From assembly GCF_055900595.2 (NCBI RefSeq), contig NZ_CM148325.1: a stretch of DNA of 64,000 nt; one strand, given 5' to 3'. The notes beneath the pieces are model-generated. The model was not told the DNA's origin, did not search any database, and saw only the letters and a program-made list of their open reading frames with translations. Numbering within the stretch: position 1 is the stretch's first letter; each line of letters starts with the position of its first letter. Shown here piece by piece: positions 18,831 through 48,327 of the stretch. The position numbers were made by a program, and so were the translations under genes.

Positions 18831-19544
18831 ATGAAGATTTTTTTGGAGAATCTTTATCATTCTGATTGCTATTTCCTGCCGATAAGAGATAATCAGCAAG
18901 ACCTTGTCGGCGTTGAGTTAATTACCCATTTCTCCAGTGAAGATGGTACGGTTCGTATACCGACGAGTCGGGTTATAGCGCAACTTACCGAGGAGCAACA
19001 TTGGCAATTATTTTCTGAGCAGTTGGAATTGCTAAAATCATGCCAACACTTTTTTATTCAACATAAACTCTTTGCCTGTCTTAATTTAACCCCACAAGTG
19101 GCTACTTTATTATTAGACAGGGATAATTACGCGGGCGAACTATTAAAATATCCGTTTATTGAACTGTTGATTAATGAGAATTACCCGCATCTCGATGAAG
19201 GAAAAGATAATCGCGATCTTTTGTCCTTATCGCAAATGTATCCCCTTGTGTTAGGTAATTTGGGCGCAGGCAATAGCACAATGAAAGCGGTTTTTGATGG
19301 TCTTTTCACCCGCGTCATGCTGGATAAAAGTTTTATTCAGCAACAAATCACGCATCGCTCCTTCGAACCGTTTATTCGTGCGATCCAGGCGCAAATTTCC
19401 CCATGTTGCAATTGCATCATCGCGGGGGGCATTGATACGCCAGAAATAATGGCACAGATTATCCCCTTTGATTTCCATGCTCTCCAGGGATGCCTGTGGC
19501 CTGCCGTTCCTGTAAATCAGATAACGACGTTGGTTCAGCGATAA
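18831..19544 (+). CDS. ydiV: Degenerate EAL-like protein YdiV/RflP (anti-FlhD4C2 factor)
   Basis: 237 aa ORF; ELI in place of EAL motif (VGVELITHF). Confidence 0.9.
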   Translation: MKIFLENLYHSDCYFLPIRDNQQDLVGVELITHFSSEDGTVRIPTSRVIAQLTEEQHWQLFSEQLELLKSCQHFFIQHKLFACLNLTPQVATLLLDRDNYAGELLKYPFIELLINENYPHLDEGKDNRDLLSLSQMYPLVLGNLGAGNSTMKAVFDGLFTRVMLDKSFIQQQITHRSFEPFIRAIQAQISPCCNCIIAGGIDTPEIMAQIIPFDFHALQGCLWPAVPVNQITTLVQR

Positions 19545-21238: not shown

Positions 21239-21249
21239 AAAAATTAATA

Positions 21250-21284
21250 ATAATTGATATAACAATGATTCTTATTATCAATAT
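21250..21284 (-). promoter_or_regulatory. Putative Fur box in ydiE promoter
   Basis: Minus-strand read TGATAATAAGAATCATTGTTATATCAATTATTA resembles Fur consensus GATAATGATAATCATTATC. Confidence 0.55.
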
Positions 21285-26124: not shown

Positions 26125-26151
26125 CCCCGGCGGCGTTTTGTCGCCGGGTTT
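26125..26151. terminator. Hairpin between convergent ppsA and fadK
   Basis: CCCGGCG-GCGTTTTGT-CGCCGGG followed by TTT; U-run weak. Confidence 0.4.
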
Positions 26152-26173
26152 ACGTGATCCCCGAGTATGAAAC

Positions 26174-27820
26174 TTATTCAACCTCTTTGCAGATATCCTG
26201 AGTTAATCGCCGCATAATATCTTTCCTTAACAAAAACTTTTGTATTTTACCTGATGCAGTACGCGGTAATTTCTCTGTTACCACAATATGTTCAGGATAT
26301 TTATATTTTGCTACCCGTTTACGGCTAAAAAAAGCCACTATGTCTTCCAGCGATATTGAATGATGTGGCGCTTTAAGCACGACATAAGCGCATGAACGTT
26401 CACCTAAGCGTTCATCGGGCATTGCCACAACACAAGCATCATGAATTTTAGGATGCTGTAATAAAATATCTTCCACTTCACGACTGCTAATATTTTCCCC
26501 GCCGCGGACAATAATATCTTTCTTGCGCCCGGTTATTTTTATATAGCCAGCTTCATCCATTCGGCAGAGATCGCCGCTGTAATACCAGCCTTCTTCATCC
26601 AGCGCACGGGCGGTTAATTCAGGTTCATCAAAATAACCCATAAACACATTGGGACCACGCGAAGCCTCTTCACCTACACAACCAGGCGGTAAGGTCTTGC
26701 GTGCATCATCGACCACTTTAATCTCTACGCCTGCGGCAGCGTAACCATCGGTGTTCATAAAGCGCGACAAAGGATCGTCGAGATTTACCACCGCATGCGG
26801 CGAACTTTCTGTGGAACCATAAACACTTAATAATTTAATGCCGCGTTGTTGGCATTCACGCGCCACCTTTTTGGGGATCGTGGTGCCGCCGCAAAGAAAG
26901 AAGCGCAGCGCTGAAAGGTCTGCGGGCTGTTTCTCCAGTAAATTCAAAAGGTCATAGACAAACGGTGTTGCGCCGAGCATACAGGTGCAACGCTGCTGCT
27001 CAAGCAGCGCGAGACACGCATCAGGAGTGAAAATATCTAACAACACGCTGCGAGCACCAATCAAAAAAGGTGCTGTTACGCCATGCAGAAAGCCCGTTGC
27101 GTGACCAAGTGGCGCAGGCATCATAAAGACATCCTGCCAGGTCAGATTCAGCCGCGCGCAATAAGCCCGCTCACTGGCGAGAATATTGTTATGCGTTAGC
27201 ATCACGCCCTTTGGCAGACCCTCGGTTCCGGAGGTAAATAGCACAGCGGCTAATTCATCGCCGTGGGTCGTTATCGCCGTAGTCAGTGGGGTATTGTCGG
27301 CGAGAATCTGACTTAATGAGAGGGAAGAGGTGGCGGGAGCCAGTTTGTCCACGCCGACAATTTGTTGTAGTTGTGGAAGCTGATTTTGCAGCGGCAGGAT
27401 TAAATCTACCGGACGCGTTTGTTTAAACAACGTCGGTGCAAAGAACATTTTTGCCTGACACTTATTGAGTACCCACACCAGTTCTGCTTCCCGCCAGGAA
27501 GGTAACAGCGGCACGGAAACCGCACCGGTTTTCAGGCAGGCAAGATAGATAACGGTAAATTCACACCAGCCTGGCAGTTGAAATGCGATGCGATCGCCTG
27601 ATTCAATACCCTTCGCCAGCATCCAGTTTGCCAGACAGCTCGCGGCATGATCGAGCGCGCTATAGGTGTACGATGCACCATGATTATCGACCACGGCAAT
27701 TTTATCTGGCATCGAACGAGCGGTCTGCTGCCAGTAATCGGCCAGCGAAGCATCGCCCCATAATCCTTGCTGACGATACGCCGCACGACGTTGTTCGTTG
27801 AACGTTAATGTCACTTTCAT
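26174..27820 (-). CDS. fadK: Short-chain acyl-CoA synthetase (548 aa)
   Basis: ATG at 27818-27820 (minus) gives MKVTLTFNEQRRAAYRQQ; AMP-binding motifs TSGTEGLPKG. Confidence 0.9.
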   Translation of the reverse strand: MKVTLTFNEQRRAAYRQQGLWGDASLADYWQQTARSMPDKIAVVDNHGASYTYSALDHAASCLANWMLAKGIESGDRIAFQLPGWCEFTVIYLACLKTGAVSVPLLPSWREAELVWVLNKCQAKMFFAPTLFKQTRPVDLILPLQNQLPQLQQIVGVDKLAPATSSLSLSQILADNTPLTTAITTHGDELAAVLFTSGTEGLPKGVMLTHNNILASERAYCARLNLTWQDVFMMPAPLGHATGFLHGVTAPFLIGARSVLLDIFTPDACLALLEQQRCTCMLGATPFVYDLLNLLEKQPADLSALRFFLCGGTTIPKKVARECQQRGIKLLSVYGSTESSPHAVVNLDDPLSRFMNTDGYAAAGVEIKVVDDARKTLPPGCVGEEASRGPNVFMGYFDEPELTARALDEEGWYYSGDLCRMDEAGYIKITGRKKDIIVRGGENISSREVEDILLQHPKIHDACVVAMPDERLGERSCAYVVLKAPHHSISLEDIVAFFSRKRVAKYKYPEHIVVTEKLPRTASGKIQKFLLRKDIMRRLTQDICKEVE

Positions 27821-31549: not shown

Positions 31550-32461
31550 ATGTATCAACGCTGTTTTGATAACGCCAGCGAAACGCTGTTTGTCGCCGGT
31601 AAAACGCCACGGCTTTCACGTTTTGCATTTAGCGATGATCCAAAATGGGAGTCCGGACATCACGTTCATGACAATGAAACCGAGCTGATTTACGTCAAGA
31701 AAGGGGTAGCAAGGTTTACCATCGATTCTTCGTTATATGTCGCGCATGCCGATGACATTGTGGTGATAGAACGTGGCAGGTTGCATGCGGTGGCCTCTGA
31801 CGTTAACGATCCAGCAACGACGTGTACCTGTGCGCTGTACGGCTTTCAGTTTCAGGGGACTGAGGAAAATCAGCTACTGCAACCGCATTCTTGCCCGGTC
31901 ATTGCCGCAGGGCAGGGAAAAGAAATCATTAAAGCCTTATTTAATGAGCTAAGTGTGATTTTGCCGCAAAGTAAAAATAGCCAAACATCTTCGTTATGGG
32001 ACGCATTTGCCTATACGTTAGCAATTCTTTACTACGAAAACTTTAAAAATGCTTATCGTTCGGAGCAGGGATATATTAAAAAAGATGTTCTGATAAAAGA
32101 TATTCTTTTCTATCTGAATAATAATTATCGCGAAAAAATCACTTTAGAGCAGTTATCGAAAAAATTTCGTGCCAGCGTCAGTTATATTTGCCATGAATTT
32201 ACCAAAGAGTATCGTATTTCCCCTATTAACTATGTTATTCAACGGCGTATGACGGAAGCGAAATGGTCACTCACCAATACTGAATTATCACAGGCAGAGA
32301 TCTCCTGGCGTGTGGGTTATGAAAATGTCGATCACTTTGCCAAACTGTTTTTGCGCCATGTCGGCTGTTCGCCCAGCGATTACCGCAGGCAATTTAAAAA
32401 CTGTTTTGCGGAACAAGAAATCTTATCTGAATTTCCTCAACCGGTAAGTCTTGCCGGATAA
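31550..32461 (+). CDS. ydiP: AraC-family transcriptional regulator
   Basis: 303 aa ORF with C-terminal AraC-type HTH region; divergent from ydiQ. Confidence 0.88.
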   Translation: MYQRCFDNASETLFVAGKTPRLSRFAFSDDPKWESGHHVHDNETELIYVKKGVARFTIDSSLYVAHADDIVVIERGRLHAVASDVNDPATTCTCALYGFQFQGTEENQLLQPHSCPVIAAGQGKEIIKALFNELSVILPQSKNSQTSSLWDAFAYTLAILYYENFKNAYRSEQGYIKKDVLIKDILFYLNNNYREKITLEQLSKKFRASVSYICHEFTKEYRISPINYVIQRRMTEAKWSLTNTELSQAEISWRVGYENVDHFAKLFLRHVGCSPSDYRRQFKNCFAEQEILSEFPQPVSLAG

Positions 32462-42164: not shown

Positions 42165-45100
42165 ATGATTCCACAGATTTCCCAGGCACCCGGCGTCGTT
42201 CAATTGGTGCTTAATTTTTTGCAAGAGCTGGAGCAACAGGGTTTTACCGGCGATACGGCGACAAGTTATGCCGATCGTCTGACAATGTCGACCGACAACA
42301 GTATTTACCAACTTCTCCCCGATGCGGTGGTATTTCCGCGTTCAACCGCAGATGTGGCGCTGATCGCCCGTCTTGCCGCGCAGGAACGCTATTCATCGCT
42401 GATCTTTACCCCCCGCGGCGGCGGCACCGGCACTAACGGTCAGGCGCTCAACCAGGGGATTATTGTTGATATGTCCCGCCATATGAACCGCATCATCGAA
42501 ATTAACCCTGAAGAGGGCTGGGTGCGCGTTGAGGCCGGGGTGATAAAAGATCAACTCAATCAGTACCTGAAACCATTCGGCTACTTTTTTGCGCCGGAAC
42601 TTTCGACCAGCAACCGGGCAACGCTCGGTGGGATGATCAATACCGATGCATCCGGTCAGGGATCGCTGGTCTATGGCAAAACGTCAGATCACGTACTTGG
42701 CGTACGCGCGGTGTTGTTGGGGGGCGATATTCTCGATACGCAACCTTTACCCGTCGAACTGGCGGAAACGCTGGGTAAATCCAATACTACAATCGGGCGA
42801 ATTTATAACACGGTTTATCAACGTTGCCGTCAGCAACGCCAGTTAATTATCGACAAATTCCCCAAACTTAACCGTTTTCTGACGGGTTACGATCTGCGTC
42901 ATGTCTTTAACGATGAGATGACTGAGTTCGACCTGACGCGCATTCTGACGGGTTCAGAAGGGACGCTGGCCTTTATTACCGAAGCGCGGCTGGATATTAC
43001 GCCCTTGCCTAAAGTGCGCCGTCTGGTGAACGTCAAATATGACTCTTTTGACTCCGCGCTGCGTAACGCGCCGTTTATGGTTGAGGCGCGGGCGCTTTCG
43101 GTAGAGACGGTAGACTCAAAAGTGCTGAATCTGGCGCGGGAAGATATTGTCTGGCATTCCGTCAGCGAGTTGATTACCGATGTGCCTGACAAAGAAATGC
43201 TCGGGCTGAACATTGTGGAATTTGCTGGTGATGATGAGACGCTGATTGATGAGCGGGTAAATGCACTCTGTGCGCGGTTGGATGAACTGATTGCCAGCCA
43301 ACAGGCAGGTGTGATTGGCTGGCAGGTGTGCCGCGAACTGGCAGGTGTTGAGCGTATTTATGCCATGCGCAAAAAAGCCGTCGGCCTGCTCGGTAATGCC
43401 AAAGGAGCAGCCAAACCGATTCCGTTTGCTGAGGATACCTGCGTACCGCCGGAACATCTGGCGGATTATATTGCTGAATTTCGCGCGCTGCTCGACAGCC
43501 ACGGCTTAAGCTACGGTATGTTCGGTCACGTCGACGCAGGTGTCTTGCACGTCCGTCCGGCACTGGATATGTGCGATCCGCAACAAGAGATTTTGATGAA
43601 GCAAATCTCTGATGATGTAGTGGCGTTGACTGCGAAATACGGTGGTTTGTTGTGGGGCGAACATGGTAAAGGTTTTCGTGCCGAATACAGCCCGGCGTTT
43701 TTCGGTGAGGAACTTTTTGCAGAACTGCGCAAAGTGAAAGCGGCATTTGACCCGCATAACCGACTCAACCCAGGGAAGATTTGCCCGCCAGAAGGTCTCG
43801 ATGCGCCGATGATGAAAGTGGACGCGGTGAAGCGTGGCACATATGATCGACAGATCCCCATCGCGGTACGCCAGCAGTGGCGCGGGGCAATGGAGTGTAA
43901 TGGCAACGGTTTATGCTTCAACTTTGATGCCCGCAGTCCGATGTGCCCGTCGATGAAGATTACTCAGAACCGGATTCATTCACCGAAAGGACGCGCAACG
44001 CTGGTGCGTGAGTGGCTGCGTTTGTTGGCAGATCGCGGCGTTGACCCACTCAAACTGGAACAAGAACTGCCTGAATCCGGAGTCAGTTTGCGGACGTTAA
44101 TTGCCCGCACGCGCAATAGCTGGCATGCGAATAAAGGCGAATATGACTTCTCACACGAAGTCAAAGAGGCGATGTCGGGTTGCCTGGCCTGTAAAGCGTG
44201 TTCGACTCAGTGCCCCATCAAAATTGACGTGCCTGAGTTTCGTTCTCGCTTTCTGCAACTCTATCACACCCGTTATTTGCGCCCCCTGCGCGACCACCTC
44301 GTCGCCACGGTCGAGAGCTACGCACCGCTGATGGCTCGTGCACCGAAGACTTTTAACTTCTTCATTAACCAGCCGCTGGTGCGCAAACTCTCCGAAAAAC
44401 ATATCGGCATGGTTGATTTGCCGCTGCTGTCGGTTCCCTCGCTGCAACAACAAATGGTGGGGCATCGCTCGGCAAACATGACGCTGGAACAGCTTGAAGT
44501 TCTCAATGCAGAGCAGAAAGCGCGCACGGTGTTGGTGGTGCAGGACCCCTTTACCAGCTATTACGATGCGCAAGTGGTGGCGGATTTTGTCCGTCTGGTC
44601 GAAAAATTAGGTTTCCAGCCCGTGTTACTGCCATTTTCGCCGAATGGCAAAGCCCAGCATATCAAAGGCTTTCTTAATCGTTTTGCGAAGACGGCGAAAA
44701 AGACGGCGGATTTCCTCAACCGTGTGGCGAAGCTGGGGATGCCAATGGTGGGCGTCGATCCGGCGCTGGTACTTTGTTATCGCGATGAATATAAACTGGC
44801 GCTGGGCGAGGAACGTGGCGAGTTTAACGTCTTACTGGCGAATGAATGGCTGGCAAGCGCACTTGACTCACAGCCAGTGGCTACAGTCAGCGGTGAATCA
44901 TGGTATTTCTTTGGTCACTGTACCGAGGTTACCGCTTTGCCGGGCGCGCCAGCACAATGGGCTGCGATATTTGCCCGTTTTGGCGCGAAACTGGAAAATG
45001 TCAGCGTGGGTTGCTGCGGCATGGCAGGGACTTACGGACATGAAGCGAAAAATCATAAAAACTCGCTCGGGATCTATGAGTTATCCTGGCATCAGGCGAT

Positions 45101-45221
45101 GCAGCGACTGCCGCGTAACCGCTGTCTGGCGACCGGATATTCCTGTCGCGGCCAGGTAAAACGGGTTGAAGGCACGGGGGTACGCCATCCTGTGCAGGCT
45201 TTACTGGAGATTATTAAATGA
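42165..45221 (+). CDS. ydiJ: Large FAD-linked oxidase fused to Fe-S / glycolate-oxidase-type C-terminal domain (D-2-hydroxyglutarate dehydrogenase-like)
   Basis: 1018 aa ORF; N-terminal FAD-binding region, internal CxxCxxC motifs (CLACKACSTQC). Confidence 0.9.
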   Translation: MIPQISQAPGVVQLVLNFLQELEQQGFTGDTATSYADRLTMSTDNSIYQLLPDAVVFPRSTADVALIARLAAQERYSSLIFTPRGGGTGTNGQALNQGIIVDMSRHMNRIIEINPEEGWVRVEAGVIKDQLNQYLKPFGYFFAPELSTSNRATLGGMINTDASGQGSLVYGKTSDHVLGVRAVLLGGDILDTQPLPVELAETLGKSNTTIGRIYNTVYQRCRQQRQLIIDKFPKLNRFLTGYDLRHVFNDEMTEFDLTRILTGSEGTLAFITEARLDITPLPKVRRLVNVKYDSFDSALRNAPFMVEARALSVETVDSKVLNLAREDIVWHSVSELITDVPDKEMLGLNIVEFAGDDETLIDERVNALCARLDELIASQQAGVIGWQVCRELAGVERIYAMRKKAVGLLGNAKGAAKPIPFAEDTCVPPEHLADYIAEFRALLDSHGLSYGMFGHVDAGVLHVRPALDMCDPQQEILMKQISDDVVALTAKYGGLLWGEHGKGFRAEYSPAFFGEELFAELRKVKAAFDPHNRLNPGKICPPEGLDAPMMKVDAVKRGTYDRQIPIAVRQQWRGAMECNGNGLCFNFDARSPMCPSMKITQNRIHSPKGRATLVREWLRLLADRGVDPLKLEQELPESGVSLRTLIARTRNSWHANKGEYDFSHEVKEAMSGCLACKACSTQCPIKIDVPEFRSRFLQLYHTRYLRPLRDHLVATVESYAPLMARAPKTFNFFINQPLVRKLSEKHIGMVDLPLLSVPSLQQQMVGHRSANMTLEQLEVLNAEQKARTVLVVQDPFTSYYDAQVVADFVRLVEKLGFQPVLLPFSPNGKAQHIKGFLNRFAKTAKKTADFLNRVAKLGMPMVGVDPALVLCYRDEYKLALGEERGEFNVLLANEWLASALDSQPVATVSGESWYFFGHCTEVTALPGAPAQWAAIFARFGAKLENVSVGCCGMAGTYGHEAKNHKNSLGIYELSWHQAMQRLPRNRCLATGYSCRGQVKRVEGTGVRHPVQALLEIIK

Positions 45222-45628
45222 TATGGAAACGAAAAATCACCCTGGAAGCACTGAATGCAATGGGTGAAGGAAACATGGTGGGGTTGCTGGATATTCGCTT
45301 TGAACATATTGGTGATGACACCCTTGAAGCGACAATGCCAGTAGACTCGCGGACAAAGCAGCCTTTCGGGTTGCTGCATGGAGGGGCATCCGTGGTATTG
45401 GCCGAAAGTATCGGTTCCGTTGCCGGTTATTTATGTACCGAAGGTGAGCAAAAGGTGGTTGGTCTGGAAATCAATGCTAATCATGTTCGCTCGGCACGAG
45501 AAGGGCGGGTACGCGGCGTATGTAAACCGTTGCATCTCGGTTCACGTCATCAGGTTTGGCAGATAGAAATCCTCGATGAGAAAGGGCGTTTGTGCTGTTC
45601 GTCACGATTGACGACAGCCATTTTGTGA
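45218..45628 (+). CDS. menI: Hotdog-fold 1,4-dihydroxy-2-naphthoyl-CoA thioesterase
   Basis: 136 aa ORF, recognised YdiI/MenI sequence; overlaps ydiJ stop. Confidence 0.92.
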   Translation: MIWKRKITLEALNAMGEGNMVGLLDIRFEHIGDDTLEATMPVDSRTKQPFGLLHGGASVVLAESIGSVAGYLCTEGEQKVVGLEINANHVRSAREGRVRGVCKPLHLGSRHQVWQIEILDEKGRLCCSSRLTTAIL

Positions 45629-45727
45629 CGTTGTCACCAGAAAAATGTGACGCATATTGCTTTTGGTCATTATCTGCACAGTAAACGGTGGTATACTGTG
45701 CAGGTCTTGTCTAAAAGCGAGGATGCT

Positions 45728-45916
45728 ATGTCTACTCAACTTGATCCCACCCAGCTGGCCATTGAATTTTTACGCCGTGACCAAAGCAATCTTTCACCTG
45801 CCCAATATCTCAAACGTCTGAAACAATTAGAACTTGAATTCGCTGACTTGCTTACTCTCTCTTCTGCTGAATTAAAAGAAGAAATCTACTTTGCCTGGCG
45901 TTTGGGCGTGCATTGA
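45728..45916 (+). CDS. ydiH: Small protein YdiH (62 aa)
   Basis: ATG at 45728 gives MSTQLDPTQLAIEFLRRDQSNLSPAQYLKRLKQLELEF. Confidence 0.75.
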   Translation: MSTQLDPTQLAIEFLRRDQSNLSPAQYLKRLKQLELEFADLLTLSSAELKEEIYFAWRLGVH

Positions 45917-46068
45917 TCCTGACGTAATGCCGCGAGTTCGCCAAATCGGCCTGGATTAATCTTCGTCCAGGTTCGAGGGCCTTCTTAATACTGCTTATCT
46001 ACCCGCCTGATAACGTTCAAAAATAATACAAATCGCAGTTTGTGCTAAAACGGCGGCTTAGCTTTATG

Positions 46069-46180
46069 AGACTATTCTTATCGCCCCTTCGAGCTAAGCC
46101 ACTGTGAGTGCCGGAGATAAGCGCCGGATGGGGTAGAAACCCTTAAGCCTGTGATGCACAGACTTAAGGGTTTTCTTATT
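46069..46180 (+). ncRNA. rydB: Candidate small RNA (position consistent with RydB) ending in a strong terminator hairpin; bounds approximate
   Basis: CCCTTAAG-loop-CTTAAGGG hairpin at 46140-46170 followed by TTTTCTTATTT; ydiH-sufA intergenic location; sequence identity to RydB recalled only approximately. Confidence 0.4.
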
Positions 46181-46402
46181 TCTGAACGCTGCACTTTTTT
46201 ACCTATCTCTTAAATAGTCATTTTCAATACAACTTTTTCTTTTTCATCACAGCCTTAATGCTCCTTAGATAATAATCATTATCTAACAATGAGATACCTA
46301 ATTCTTAGCGTGCCTGTTAACCCACACATCAGGGTCTATGCTTATTAAAAGCAGGCAAAAAGCATGTTTTACGGTAAAGCCCCTGCGTTTGCTGGGTTGA
46401 AC

Positions 46403-46420
46403 TGATAATCATTATCACTA
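46403..46420 (+). promoter_or_regulatory. Putative Fur box in suf operon promoter
   Basis: TGATAATCATTATCACTA 43-60 nt upstream of sufA ATG; near-match to Fur consensus; second similar element ATAATAATCATTATC at 46269-46283. Confidence 0.6.
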
Positions 46421-46462
46421 ACATGCTGTTATACGCTGAAAGCGATGAAGTGAGGTAAATCG

Positions 46463-46831
46463 ATGGACATGCATTCAGGAACCTTTAATCCACAGGATTT
46501 CGCCTGGCAGGGTTTAACGCTGACACCCGCAGCCGCTGTCCACATCCGTGAGCTGGTGGCAAAGCAACCAGGTATGGTCGGCGTGCGCTTAGGCGTGAAG
46601 CAAACGGGCTGCGCGGGATTTGGCTATGTGCTCGACAGTGTTAGCGAGCCAGACAAAGACGATCTGCTGTTTGAACATGACGGCGCGAAGCTGTTTGTCC
46701 CGCTGCAAGCGATGCCGTTTATTGATGGCACGGAAGTCGATTTCGTTCGTGAAGGACTTAATCAGATATTCAAATTTCACAACCCGAAAGCCCAGAATGA
46801 ATGTGGCTGTGGCGAAAGCTTTGGGGTATAG
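46463..46831 (+). CDS. sufA: Fe-S cluster A-type carrier
   Basis: 122 aa ORF with C-terminal CGCGESF motif. Confidence 0.95.
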
Positions 46832-46839
46832 GCGGTACT

Positions 46840-48327
46840 ATGTCTCGTAATACTGAAGCAACTGACGATGTCAAAACCTGGACCGGCGGCCCGCTGAATT
46901 ATAAAGAAGGATTCTTCACCCAGTTAGCCACTGATGAGCTGGCAAAGGGGATAAACGAAGAGGTGGTGCGCGCAATATCGGCGAAGCGTAATGAGCCGGA
47001 GTGGATGCTGGAGTTTCGTCTCAATGCCTATCGCGCATGGCTGGAGATGGAAGAGCCGCACTGGCTGAAAGCGCACTACGACAAGCTGAATTATCAGGAT
47101 TACAGCTACTACTCAGCACCATCGTGCGGTAATTGTGACGACAACTGCGCGTCTGAACCCGGCGCGGTGCAGCAAACTGGCGCGAACGCCTTTTTAAGTA
47201 AAGAGGTGGAGGCGGCGTTTGAGCAGTTGGGCGTTCCCGTGCGGGAAGGCAAAGAGGTGGCGGTGGATGCCATTTTCGACTCTGTTTCGGTTGCCACCAC
47301 TTATCGCGAAAAACTGGCGGAGCAGGGAATTATTTTTTGCTCCTTTGGCGAGGCGATCCACGATCACCCGGAACTGGTGCGTAAATATCTCGGCACCGTG
47401 GTGCCGGGGAATGACAACTTCTTTGCCGCGCTTAATGCGGCGGTAGCCTCTGACGGTACGTTTATTTATGTGCCTAAAGGCGTGCGCTGCCCGATGGAAC
47501 TTTCCACCTATTTTCGCATTAACGCGGAAAAAACCGGGCAGTTTGAGCGCACCATTCTGGTGGCCGACGAAGACAGCTACGTCAGCTACATTGAAGGCTG
47601 TTCCGCTCCGGTGCGTGACAGCTATCAGTTACACGCGGCGGTGGTGGAAGTCATCATCCATAAAAACGCCGAGGTGAAATATTCCACGGTACAAAACTGG
47701 TTCCCTGGCGATAACAACACCGGCGGTATTCTCAATTTCGTCACCAAGCGTGCTTTGTGCGAAGGCGAAAACAGCAAAATGTCATGGACGCAATCAGAAA
47801 CCGGGTCAGCGATTACGTGGAAATATCCCAGCTGCATTTTGCGCGGCGATAACTCCATTGGTGAGTTTTACTCGGTGGCACTGACCAGCGGTCATCAGCA
47901 AGCGGATACCGGCACCAAGATGATCCACATCGGTAAAAACACCAAATCGACCATTATCTCGAAAGGGATCTCTGCCGGACATAGTCAGAACAGTTATCGC
48001 GGCTTAGTGAAAATCATGCCGACGGCAACCAATGCGCGCAATTTCACTCAGTGCGACTCAATGCTGATTGGCGCTAATTGTGGGGCGCATACCTTCCCGT
48101 ATGTCGAATGTCGCAATAACAGCGCACAACTGGAGCACGAGGCAACGACATCACGTATTGGTGAAGATCAACTGTTTTACTGCCTGCAACGCGGGATCAG
48201 CGAAGAAGACGCCATCTCGATGATTGTTAACGGTTTCTGCAAAGACGTGTTCTCAGAACTGCCGCTGGAATTTGCCGTTGAAGCACAAAAACTCCTCGCC
48301 ATCAGTCTTGAACACAGCGTCGGATAA
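46840..48327 (+). CDS. sufB: Fe-S cluster scaffold SufB
   Basis: ATG at 46840 gives [26 protein letters not shown]; 495 aa. Confidence 0.95.

Follow-up and report, generated by a model that had tools for sequence, protein, structure and literature searches.

The window (the whole 64,000-nucleotide stretch of DNA that was analysed) carries the ydiJ-menI-ydiH-rydB-sufABCDSE region of Escherichia coli on the plus strand, as identified from the open reading frames and from the RefSeq annotation of near-identical strains. Of 5426 complete E. coli genomes, 5421 have a match to a 601-bp stretch (45900-46500) that includes the intergenic region upstream of sufA. Between the OxyR block and the ATG, a single base of the window differs from K-12 (T at 46276). 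The further differences between the window and K-12 are located upstream, in rydB and ydiH. The suf control region is well studied and already known, and the finding described here is an ordinary one. The features of the region are listed below, with positions relative to the transcription start (+1) where these apply.

46083..46141, plus strand, rydB small RNA gene (Rfam RF00118, 71.7 bits, E = 4e-16)
46202..46232, about -229..-199, OxyR-site block CCTATCTCTTAAATAGTCATTTTCAATACAA, strongly conserved across genera
46268..46286, -163..-145, distal Fur-box look-alike GATAATAATCATTATCTAA
46284..46296, plus strand, IHF core-consensus position TAACAATGAGATA, 2 mismatches to WATCAANNNNTTR
46329..46351, -102..-80, highly conserved block CAGGGTCTATGCTTATTAAAAG
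46376..46400, about -55..-31, IscR type-2 activator site, CC at 46380-46381 and GG at 46395-46396
46398..46431, plus strand, PsufA core promoter, -35 TTGAAC at 46398-46403, putative -10 TAACAT at 46419-46424, +1 at 46431
46401..46419, proximal Fur operator of PsufA, 19-mer ACTGATAATCATTATCACT with 7-1-7 core TGATAATCATTATCA at 46403-46417
46463..46831, plus strand, sufA coding sequence (ORF list and RefSeq naming in near-identical strains), with sufB, sufC and the remaining operon downstream

The K-12 annotation places rydB at the homologous position, and an Rfam scan of 44000-48000 returned nothing but this gene. A long hairpin and a T-run are found on its 3' side (about 46140-46185). Two bases (AA) that are present in rydB of K-12 are missing from the copy in the window. 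In the soil isolate SC434, the upstream part of rydB is replaced by IS1397, and the suf regulatory region is intact.

The window was anchored to PsufA using published promoter data. The -35 hexamer was reported as TTGAAC, within the end of the IscR type-2 site (Mettert et al. 2021), and is found at 46398-46403. In a 2025 paper from the Kiley laboratory, the Fur site was knocked out by changing ATA at -26 to -24 to TAT, and the IscR site was mutated by deletion of -56 to -51 and by replacement of C with G at -50. Since the sole ATA of the Fur box is at 46405-46407 and position 46381 is C, +1 was assigned to 46431. With this assignment, the published IscR-site deletion covers 46375-46380 and the point mutation falls on the C at 46381. 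The IscR site overlaps at its end with the -35 hexamer, and conservation across genera is seen in its CCCC and GGGG parts. The order from upstream to downstream is OxyR (about -229..-199), IHF (about -167..-127), IscR (-55..-31), Fur (-30..-12), +1 and the ATG.

The original prediction described two near-identical elements in this region, ATAATAATCATTATC at 46269-46283 and TGATAATCATTATCACTA at 46403-46420, and took both as matches to the Fur consensus. Both strings are read at these positions in the sequence, which confirms the observation. An exact 12-mer, ATAATCATTATC, is common to the two elements and appears at 46272-46283 and 46405-46416. Six matches to this 12-mer with at most one mismatch were found in the 64-kb window, relative to 0.21 expected from dinucleotide shuffles. 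Three of the six are accounted for by the two suf elements, because the palindromic proximal element is matched on both strands. Near-matches to the 12-mer also appear at 5950 and 6368, inside the AT-rich espL1 gene. A distance of 133 bp separates the two suf elements, and the IscR site and the IHF core are located in this interval.

A Fur matrix was obtained de novo using a Gibbs sampler on 15 Fur-regulated K-12 promoter regions, with suf left out. The sampler recovered AATGATAATCATTATCATT de novo. The symmetrised matrix contains 21.9 bits of information and was used to score 63,982 positions of the window. The 19-bp consensus GATAATGATAATCATTATC and the 7-1-7 motif TGATAATNATTATCA served as the Fur-box references. 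Matrix scoring of both elements, a check suggested with the original prediction, gave 17.3 bits for the proximal and 10.9 bits for the distal element. The relevant matches are as follows.

Training sites (15), leave-one-out: 17.3-28.3 bits
56108-56126, upstream of ydhY: 19.1 bits, rank 1
21258, upstream of ydiE/hemP: 18.4 bits, rank 2
46401-46419, proximal suf element: 17.3 bits, rank 3
46268-46286, distal suf element, window allele: 10.9 bits, rank 12
46210-46228, match inside the OxyR block: 9.9 bits, rank 13
Distal suf element, K-12 allele: 8.7 bits

The strong Fur clusters reported by Chen et al. (2007) for the chromosome stretch of this window are ydhY, ydiE and sufA. The matrix is validated by the fact that its top three matches in the window are exactly these three clusters. 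In the ydiE(hemP)-aroH intergenic region, the matches of 18.4, 14.9 and 11.1 bits at 21243-21282 correspond to the cluster of Chen et al. (2007). A match of 14.4 bits, TTGGAGAATCTTTATCATT, is located at 18843-18861, within ydiV and about 12 nt from its start; this gene encodes an anti-FlhDC factor. Matches within coding sequences were obtained in thrS (8574-8592, 16.7 bits), pheS (12307-12325, 13.2 bits) and ydiP (32042-32060, 13.4 bits). These three matches are probably due to chance, and they give a background rate of about one match of at least 11 bits per 10 kb. The match of 9.9 bits inside the OxyR block, TTAAATAGTCATTTTCAAT, shows that scores of about 10 bits on this matrix are reached by AT-rich sites of other factors.

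The proximal element is the known Fur operator of suf. It matches the 7-1-7 motif perfectly (14/14) and the 19-bp consensus at 16 of 19 positions, and its score is within the 17.3-28.3 bits obtained for the training sites by leave-one-out. The 7-1-7 box, TGATAATCATTATCA, spans -28..-14 and is contained in the -35/-10 spacer. The predicted overlap with the sufA core promoter is thus confirmed, as the box fills the spacer from the published -35 TTGAAC to the -10 region. The element is identical in K-12, and none of its 19 columns is variable among 7 Escherichia. A set of 80 sufA loci from Enterobacteriaceae, with one genome per species, was used for comparison. In 77 of the 80 loci, a box that reaches 12/14 or more is located at -60..-63 from the ATG, and in the remaining three it is found at -67, -68 or -158. 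The matrix score at the proximal place is 13.7-26.6 bits in all loci except L059, in which the box is at -160.

The literature on K-12 places the Fur site of suf at the same box. Expression of sufABCDSE is Fur-repressed in K-12, and the neighbours of the K-12 operator (ORE-III region) are the same, rydB and ydiH. The position of the K-12 box relative to the -35 and to +1 is also the same, and the proximal element is present without any difference. The K-12 sufABCDSE promoter is said to have had its Fur operator described in work by Patzer and Hantke (1999), Outten (2004), Lee (2008) and Mettert and Kiley (2014). The published Fur-site mutation at -26 ATA -24 falls inside the proximal box, and in the reporters of the Kiley laboratory this 3-bp change is equated with loss of "the Fur binding site". 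A predicted Fur cluster of 21.3 bits and 31 bp was listed by Chen et al. (2007) at -53 of sufA, and this cluster is the proximal one only.

The distal element is a weaker match. It agrees with the 7-1-7 motif at 12 of 14 positions and with the 19-bp consensus at 14 of 19, so that it is absent from a scan that allows at most three mismatches. The central 13 bp of the distal element are almost identical to the operator. Its score is lost in the flanks and by the missing G of the left half-site, and the key G/C is present in one half-site only. When the 217-bp upstream region was shuffled 5000 times with its dinucleotides kept, 0.9% of the shuffles produced a match of at least 10.9 bits (P about 0.009). 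The resemblance to a Fur box is real and goes beyond base composition, since the shuffles rarely reach this score.

This resemblance raises the possibility, considered unlikely, that the distal element, at least in strains with T at 46276, serves as a genuine auxiliary operator of low affinity for Fur, at which Fur competes with IHF. Such an operator would allow Fur to damp the OxyR-dependent activation of suf when iron is plentiful. The element matches the 7-1-7 motif at 12/14 and carries two perfect hexamers, GATAAT/GATTAT, on the minus strand, and the P value of about 0.009 relative to shuffles also speaks for Fur. Proven Fur sites reach down to 10.1 bits in the separate model of Chen et al. 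(2007), so that a score of about 11 bits is compatible with Fur binding. The distal score is nevertheless 6.4 bits below that of the operator and is under all 15 training sites. The distal element is also outside of the promoter and has no strong partner at a spacing of 3 or 6 bp; its sole companion is a site of 3.8 bits, 3 bp away. In the multi-site Fur clusters of ydiE/hemP and ydhY, several matches of the same motif family are found near one gene (Chen et al. 2007). In true clusters of this type, however, the sites overlap, with a spacing of 3 or 6 bp within 25-106 bp, whereas the suf pair is 133 bp apart.

The published work on K-12 argues in the same direction. Among the strong clusters that Chen et al. 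(2007) obtained for K-12 by information theory, the proximal one is the only entry at sufA. In the Kiley-laboratory paper, mutation of the proximal box alone serves as a Fur-blind promoter. Fur binding to the distal element is unreported in the accessible literature, a scope outside of which Lee 2003, 2004 and 2008 and Seo 2014 fall.

The distribution of the distal element was examined in the same 80 loci. A distal box of at least 11/14 is present in Escherichia only. At the homologous place outside of Escherichia, no box of at least 11/14 was found; the nearest is that of L052, with 11/14 at -190, three nt away. In other genera, most matrix scores at the homologous position range from -2 to 9 bits; one outlier, of 14.9 bits, is located four nt away in L052. 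Among 7 Escherichia, 4 of the 19 columns of the distal 19-mer vary, which equals the regional average of 19%. The lack of conservation outside of Escherichia counts against an auxiliary Fur operator.

Position 46276 is a core base of the Fur hexamer, and three alleles (T, C and G) are found at this position within Escherichia, with G in one lineage. The T allele, as the exact 61-mer of the window, is present in 1977 of 5414 complete E. coli genomes (about 36%). The C allele, as the K-12 61-mer ATAACCATTATC, is present in 3258 of the 5414 (about 60%). T is carried by O157:H7, and C is carried by K-12, DH1 and an O103:H2 strain. The K-12 base homologous to 46276 is position 1879 of L001. The reference strain K-12 carries C and therefore has no exact repeat of the 12-mer. 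Across Escherichia species, T appears to be the commoner state, with E. albertii, E. whittamii and also Escherichia sp. MOD1 carrying it, and this speaks for an auxiliary operator. Against such an operator stand the three alleles at this core base and the fact that most E. coli carry the weaker allele, that of K-12. To our knowledge, all of the published experiments on the suf promoter were conducted with K-12 and its weaker C allele.

The original prediction offered a second Fur site as one explanation for the distal copy. This part was not supported, since the distal element scores lower than each of the 15 training sites, is found in Escherichia alone and is polymorphic at a core base; the K-12 literature, too, treats the proximal box as the Fur site. 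The identification of the suf promoter and of its proximal Fur box did hold. The distal element is probably not a second operator.

The sequence adjoining the distal element was compared with the IHF consensus. Upstream regions of 78 loci were aligned, and the IHF core was counted in 72 loci from Enterobacteriaceae other than Escherichia. In the alignment column about 180 nt upstream of the ATG, WATCAANNNNTTR is perfect in 42 of the 72, has one mismatch in 24 and has two mismatches in 6. An example of a perfect core outside of Escherichia is AATCAATGCATTG. The sequence TAACAA(T/C)GAGATA, with two mismatches, is present at the IHF core position in all Escherichia. The distal element directly abuts this core on its 5' side, where 16 of the 20 positions of 46264-46283 are A+T. 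The 'AAT.CATTAT' part of the distal element flanks the IHF core and is conserved in this position across genera. IHF is predicted to wrap roughly 46264-46304 in total.

Three upstream blocks are strongly conserved: the OxyR-type block at 46202-46232, 'AAT.CATTATT' followed by ATCAA....TTG, and the block at 46329-46351. The predicted IHF site is located between the conserved OxyR block upstream and the IscR/Fur/promoter region downstream. Lee and co-workers reportedly observed IHF binding at the K-12 suf promoter in 2004, with ORE-I at -236..-197 and ORE-II at -156..-127. In the window, ORE-I and ORE-II would presumably correspond to 46195-46234 and 46275-46304, and the distal element would overlap ORE-II. 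These coordinates are supported by the conserved OxyR block and the IHF core, as both sit in the middle of the respective intervals. Since the Escherichia core has two mismatches, the assignment of this exact stretch to IHF in E. coli rests on the K-12 footprints.

According to reviews of suf regulation, ORE-II is bound by IHF and is located between the promoter and the OxyR site far upstream (ORE-I). ORE-III is the place of action of Fur and IscR, and looping by IHF brings OxyR to RNA polymerase. The AT-rich arm in the window occupies the same place between the OxyR site and the core promoter as ORE-II of K-12 (Lee, Yeo & Roe 2004). It differs from ORE-II of K-12 in that the 12-mer of the arm is identical to the operator core, and the 5' arm in Escherichia has drifted towards a Fur-box-like sequence. 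The suggestion that the distal copy belongs to the OxyR/IHF/IscR region of this promoter is thus supported, and specifically for an IHF site, as the element abuts a positionally conserved WATCAANNNNTTR core.

The layout was also compared with a lambda site. The sequence of the lambda H' IHF site, AAAAAA-GCATTGCT-TATCAATTTGTTG, is paralleled in the window by TAATAA-TCATTATC-TAACAATGAGATA. Both have the arrangement of an AT-rich tract, xCATTxxx and the core. The lambda H' site scores -1.9 bits on the Fur matrix. This low score indicates that likeness to a Fur box is not general to IHF sites and is specific to the Escherichia arm.

Overlap of the distal element with the IHF site makes competition between Fur and IHF sterically plausible, a point in favour of an auxiliary Fur operator. 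The arrangement as a whole is best read as a canonical PsufA region, in which, with good confidence, Fur has its operator in the proximal element, and the distal element forms the AT-rich 5' arm of the IHF site and not an independent module. One observation that stands against the IHF arm is the distal score itself, which is unlikely to arise from composition. The sequence matches, the positions, the patterns of conservation and the allele frequencies were observed directly; from these, IHF and not Fur would be the ligand of physiological relevance at the distal element.

The distal element also contains a potential -10 hexamer, GATAAT, which could belong to a second, upstream suf promoter repressed by Fur. 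A sigma-70-like ATCACA-16-GATAAT is found at 46246-46273, and the Fur-like element overlaps its -10. This single match is to be compared with 1.4 matches expected by chance in the region. Both hexamers vary among Escherichia: E. albertii has GATAAG and E. whittamii has GGTAAT as the -10, and one lineage has CATAAC as the -35. A single sufA transcription start is described in the accessible papers. The second promoter is very improbable and was rejected, because the sigma-70 match over the distal element is at chance level; the match is also not conserved.

The common 12-mer could also be the remnant of a decaying partial duplication of the operator/promoter segment. The exact identity would fit such an origin, and with a 2-bp gap the similarity extends to the following TAACA..TG as well. 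The flanks cannot be aligned beyond about 20 bp, however, and the orthologues in other genera (AAT.CATTATT-WATCAA...) exhibit point changes and a 1-nt indel with no inserted copy. A duplication has hardly any likelihood and was rejected after alignment of the orthologues, since these display stepwise point changes from the ancestral flank of the IHF site and not an inserted copy.

From the alignments, we infer that the identity of the 12-mers reflects convergence of two AT-rich protein-binding sites and not duplication. The ancestral arm, 'AAT.CATTAT', would have been present in all Enterobacteriaceae, and a few point changes in the Escherichia lineage would have raised its accidental likeness to a Fur box. 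T at 46276, found in about a third of E. coli and in the window, would then complete the identity with the operator core.

The mechanism established in K-12 can be carried over to the window because the sequence is identical. Metal-loaded Fur in the -35/-10 spacer would block RNA polymerase and would compete with apo-IscR at the adjoining type-2 site, and iron limitation would free the promoter. In the presence of H2O2, OxyR at about -215 would activate transcription via the IHF-induced bend. These results leave the accepted view of how Fur, IscR, OxyR and IHF regulate suf unchanged.

A functional role for the T allele itself can be formulated. It is quite doubtful that the IHF arm is a functional low-affinity Fur site in the T-allele strains (about one-third of E. 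coli). If this were true, iron-loaded Fur would compete with IHF, and OxyR-dependent induction of suf would be gated by the iron status. K-12, with the C allele, would largely lack this iron gating of OxyR-dependent induction. T-allele strains such as O157:H7 are the place to look for any interplay between Fur and IHF at the suf promoter. The two suf elements illustrate a more general caution, in that an exact 12-bp copy of an operator core can be a look-alike inside the site of another factor. Conservation and position distinguish an operator from a look-alike where motif matching alone cannot.

The block at 46329-46351 was characterized in the 72 loci outside of Escherichia. It is 90-100% conserved at 17 of 23 positions, with the lowest at about 50%, and within it a 20-bp sub-block is 93% identical among 7 genera. 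Conservation of the block exceeds that of the IscR site. Inspection by eye of 46329-46351 for NsrR, IscR, ArcA, Fis and SoxS motifs gave none that was convincing, and no regulator assigned to the block was found in the accessible papers. The block might be an unrecognised protein site.

On the minus strand at 46225-46262, opposite and just upstream of the distal element, the sequence TAAGGAG-N10-GTGATGAAAAAGAAAAAGTTGTATTGA was found. This Shine-Dalgarno-like motif with an ORF of 7-8 codons is probably meaningless. Elsewhere in the window, two differences from the closest relative, EC42405, were observed. A 4.2-kb cluster that is present in EC42405 is missing between ppsA and fadK (about 26149-26216); it contains genes for an anion permease, a 2-hydroxyacid dehydrogenase, a YhcH-family protein and an SDR oxidoreductase. 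The second difference is the type III effector gene espL1, which adjoins thrS in the window (about 5864-7762).
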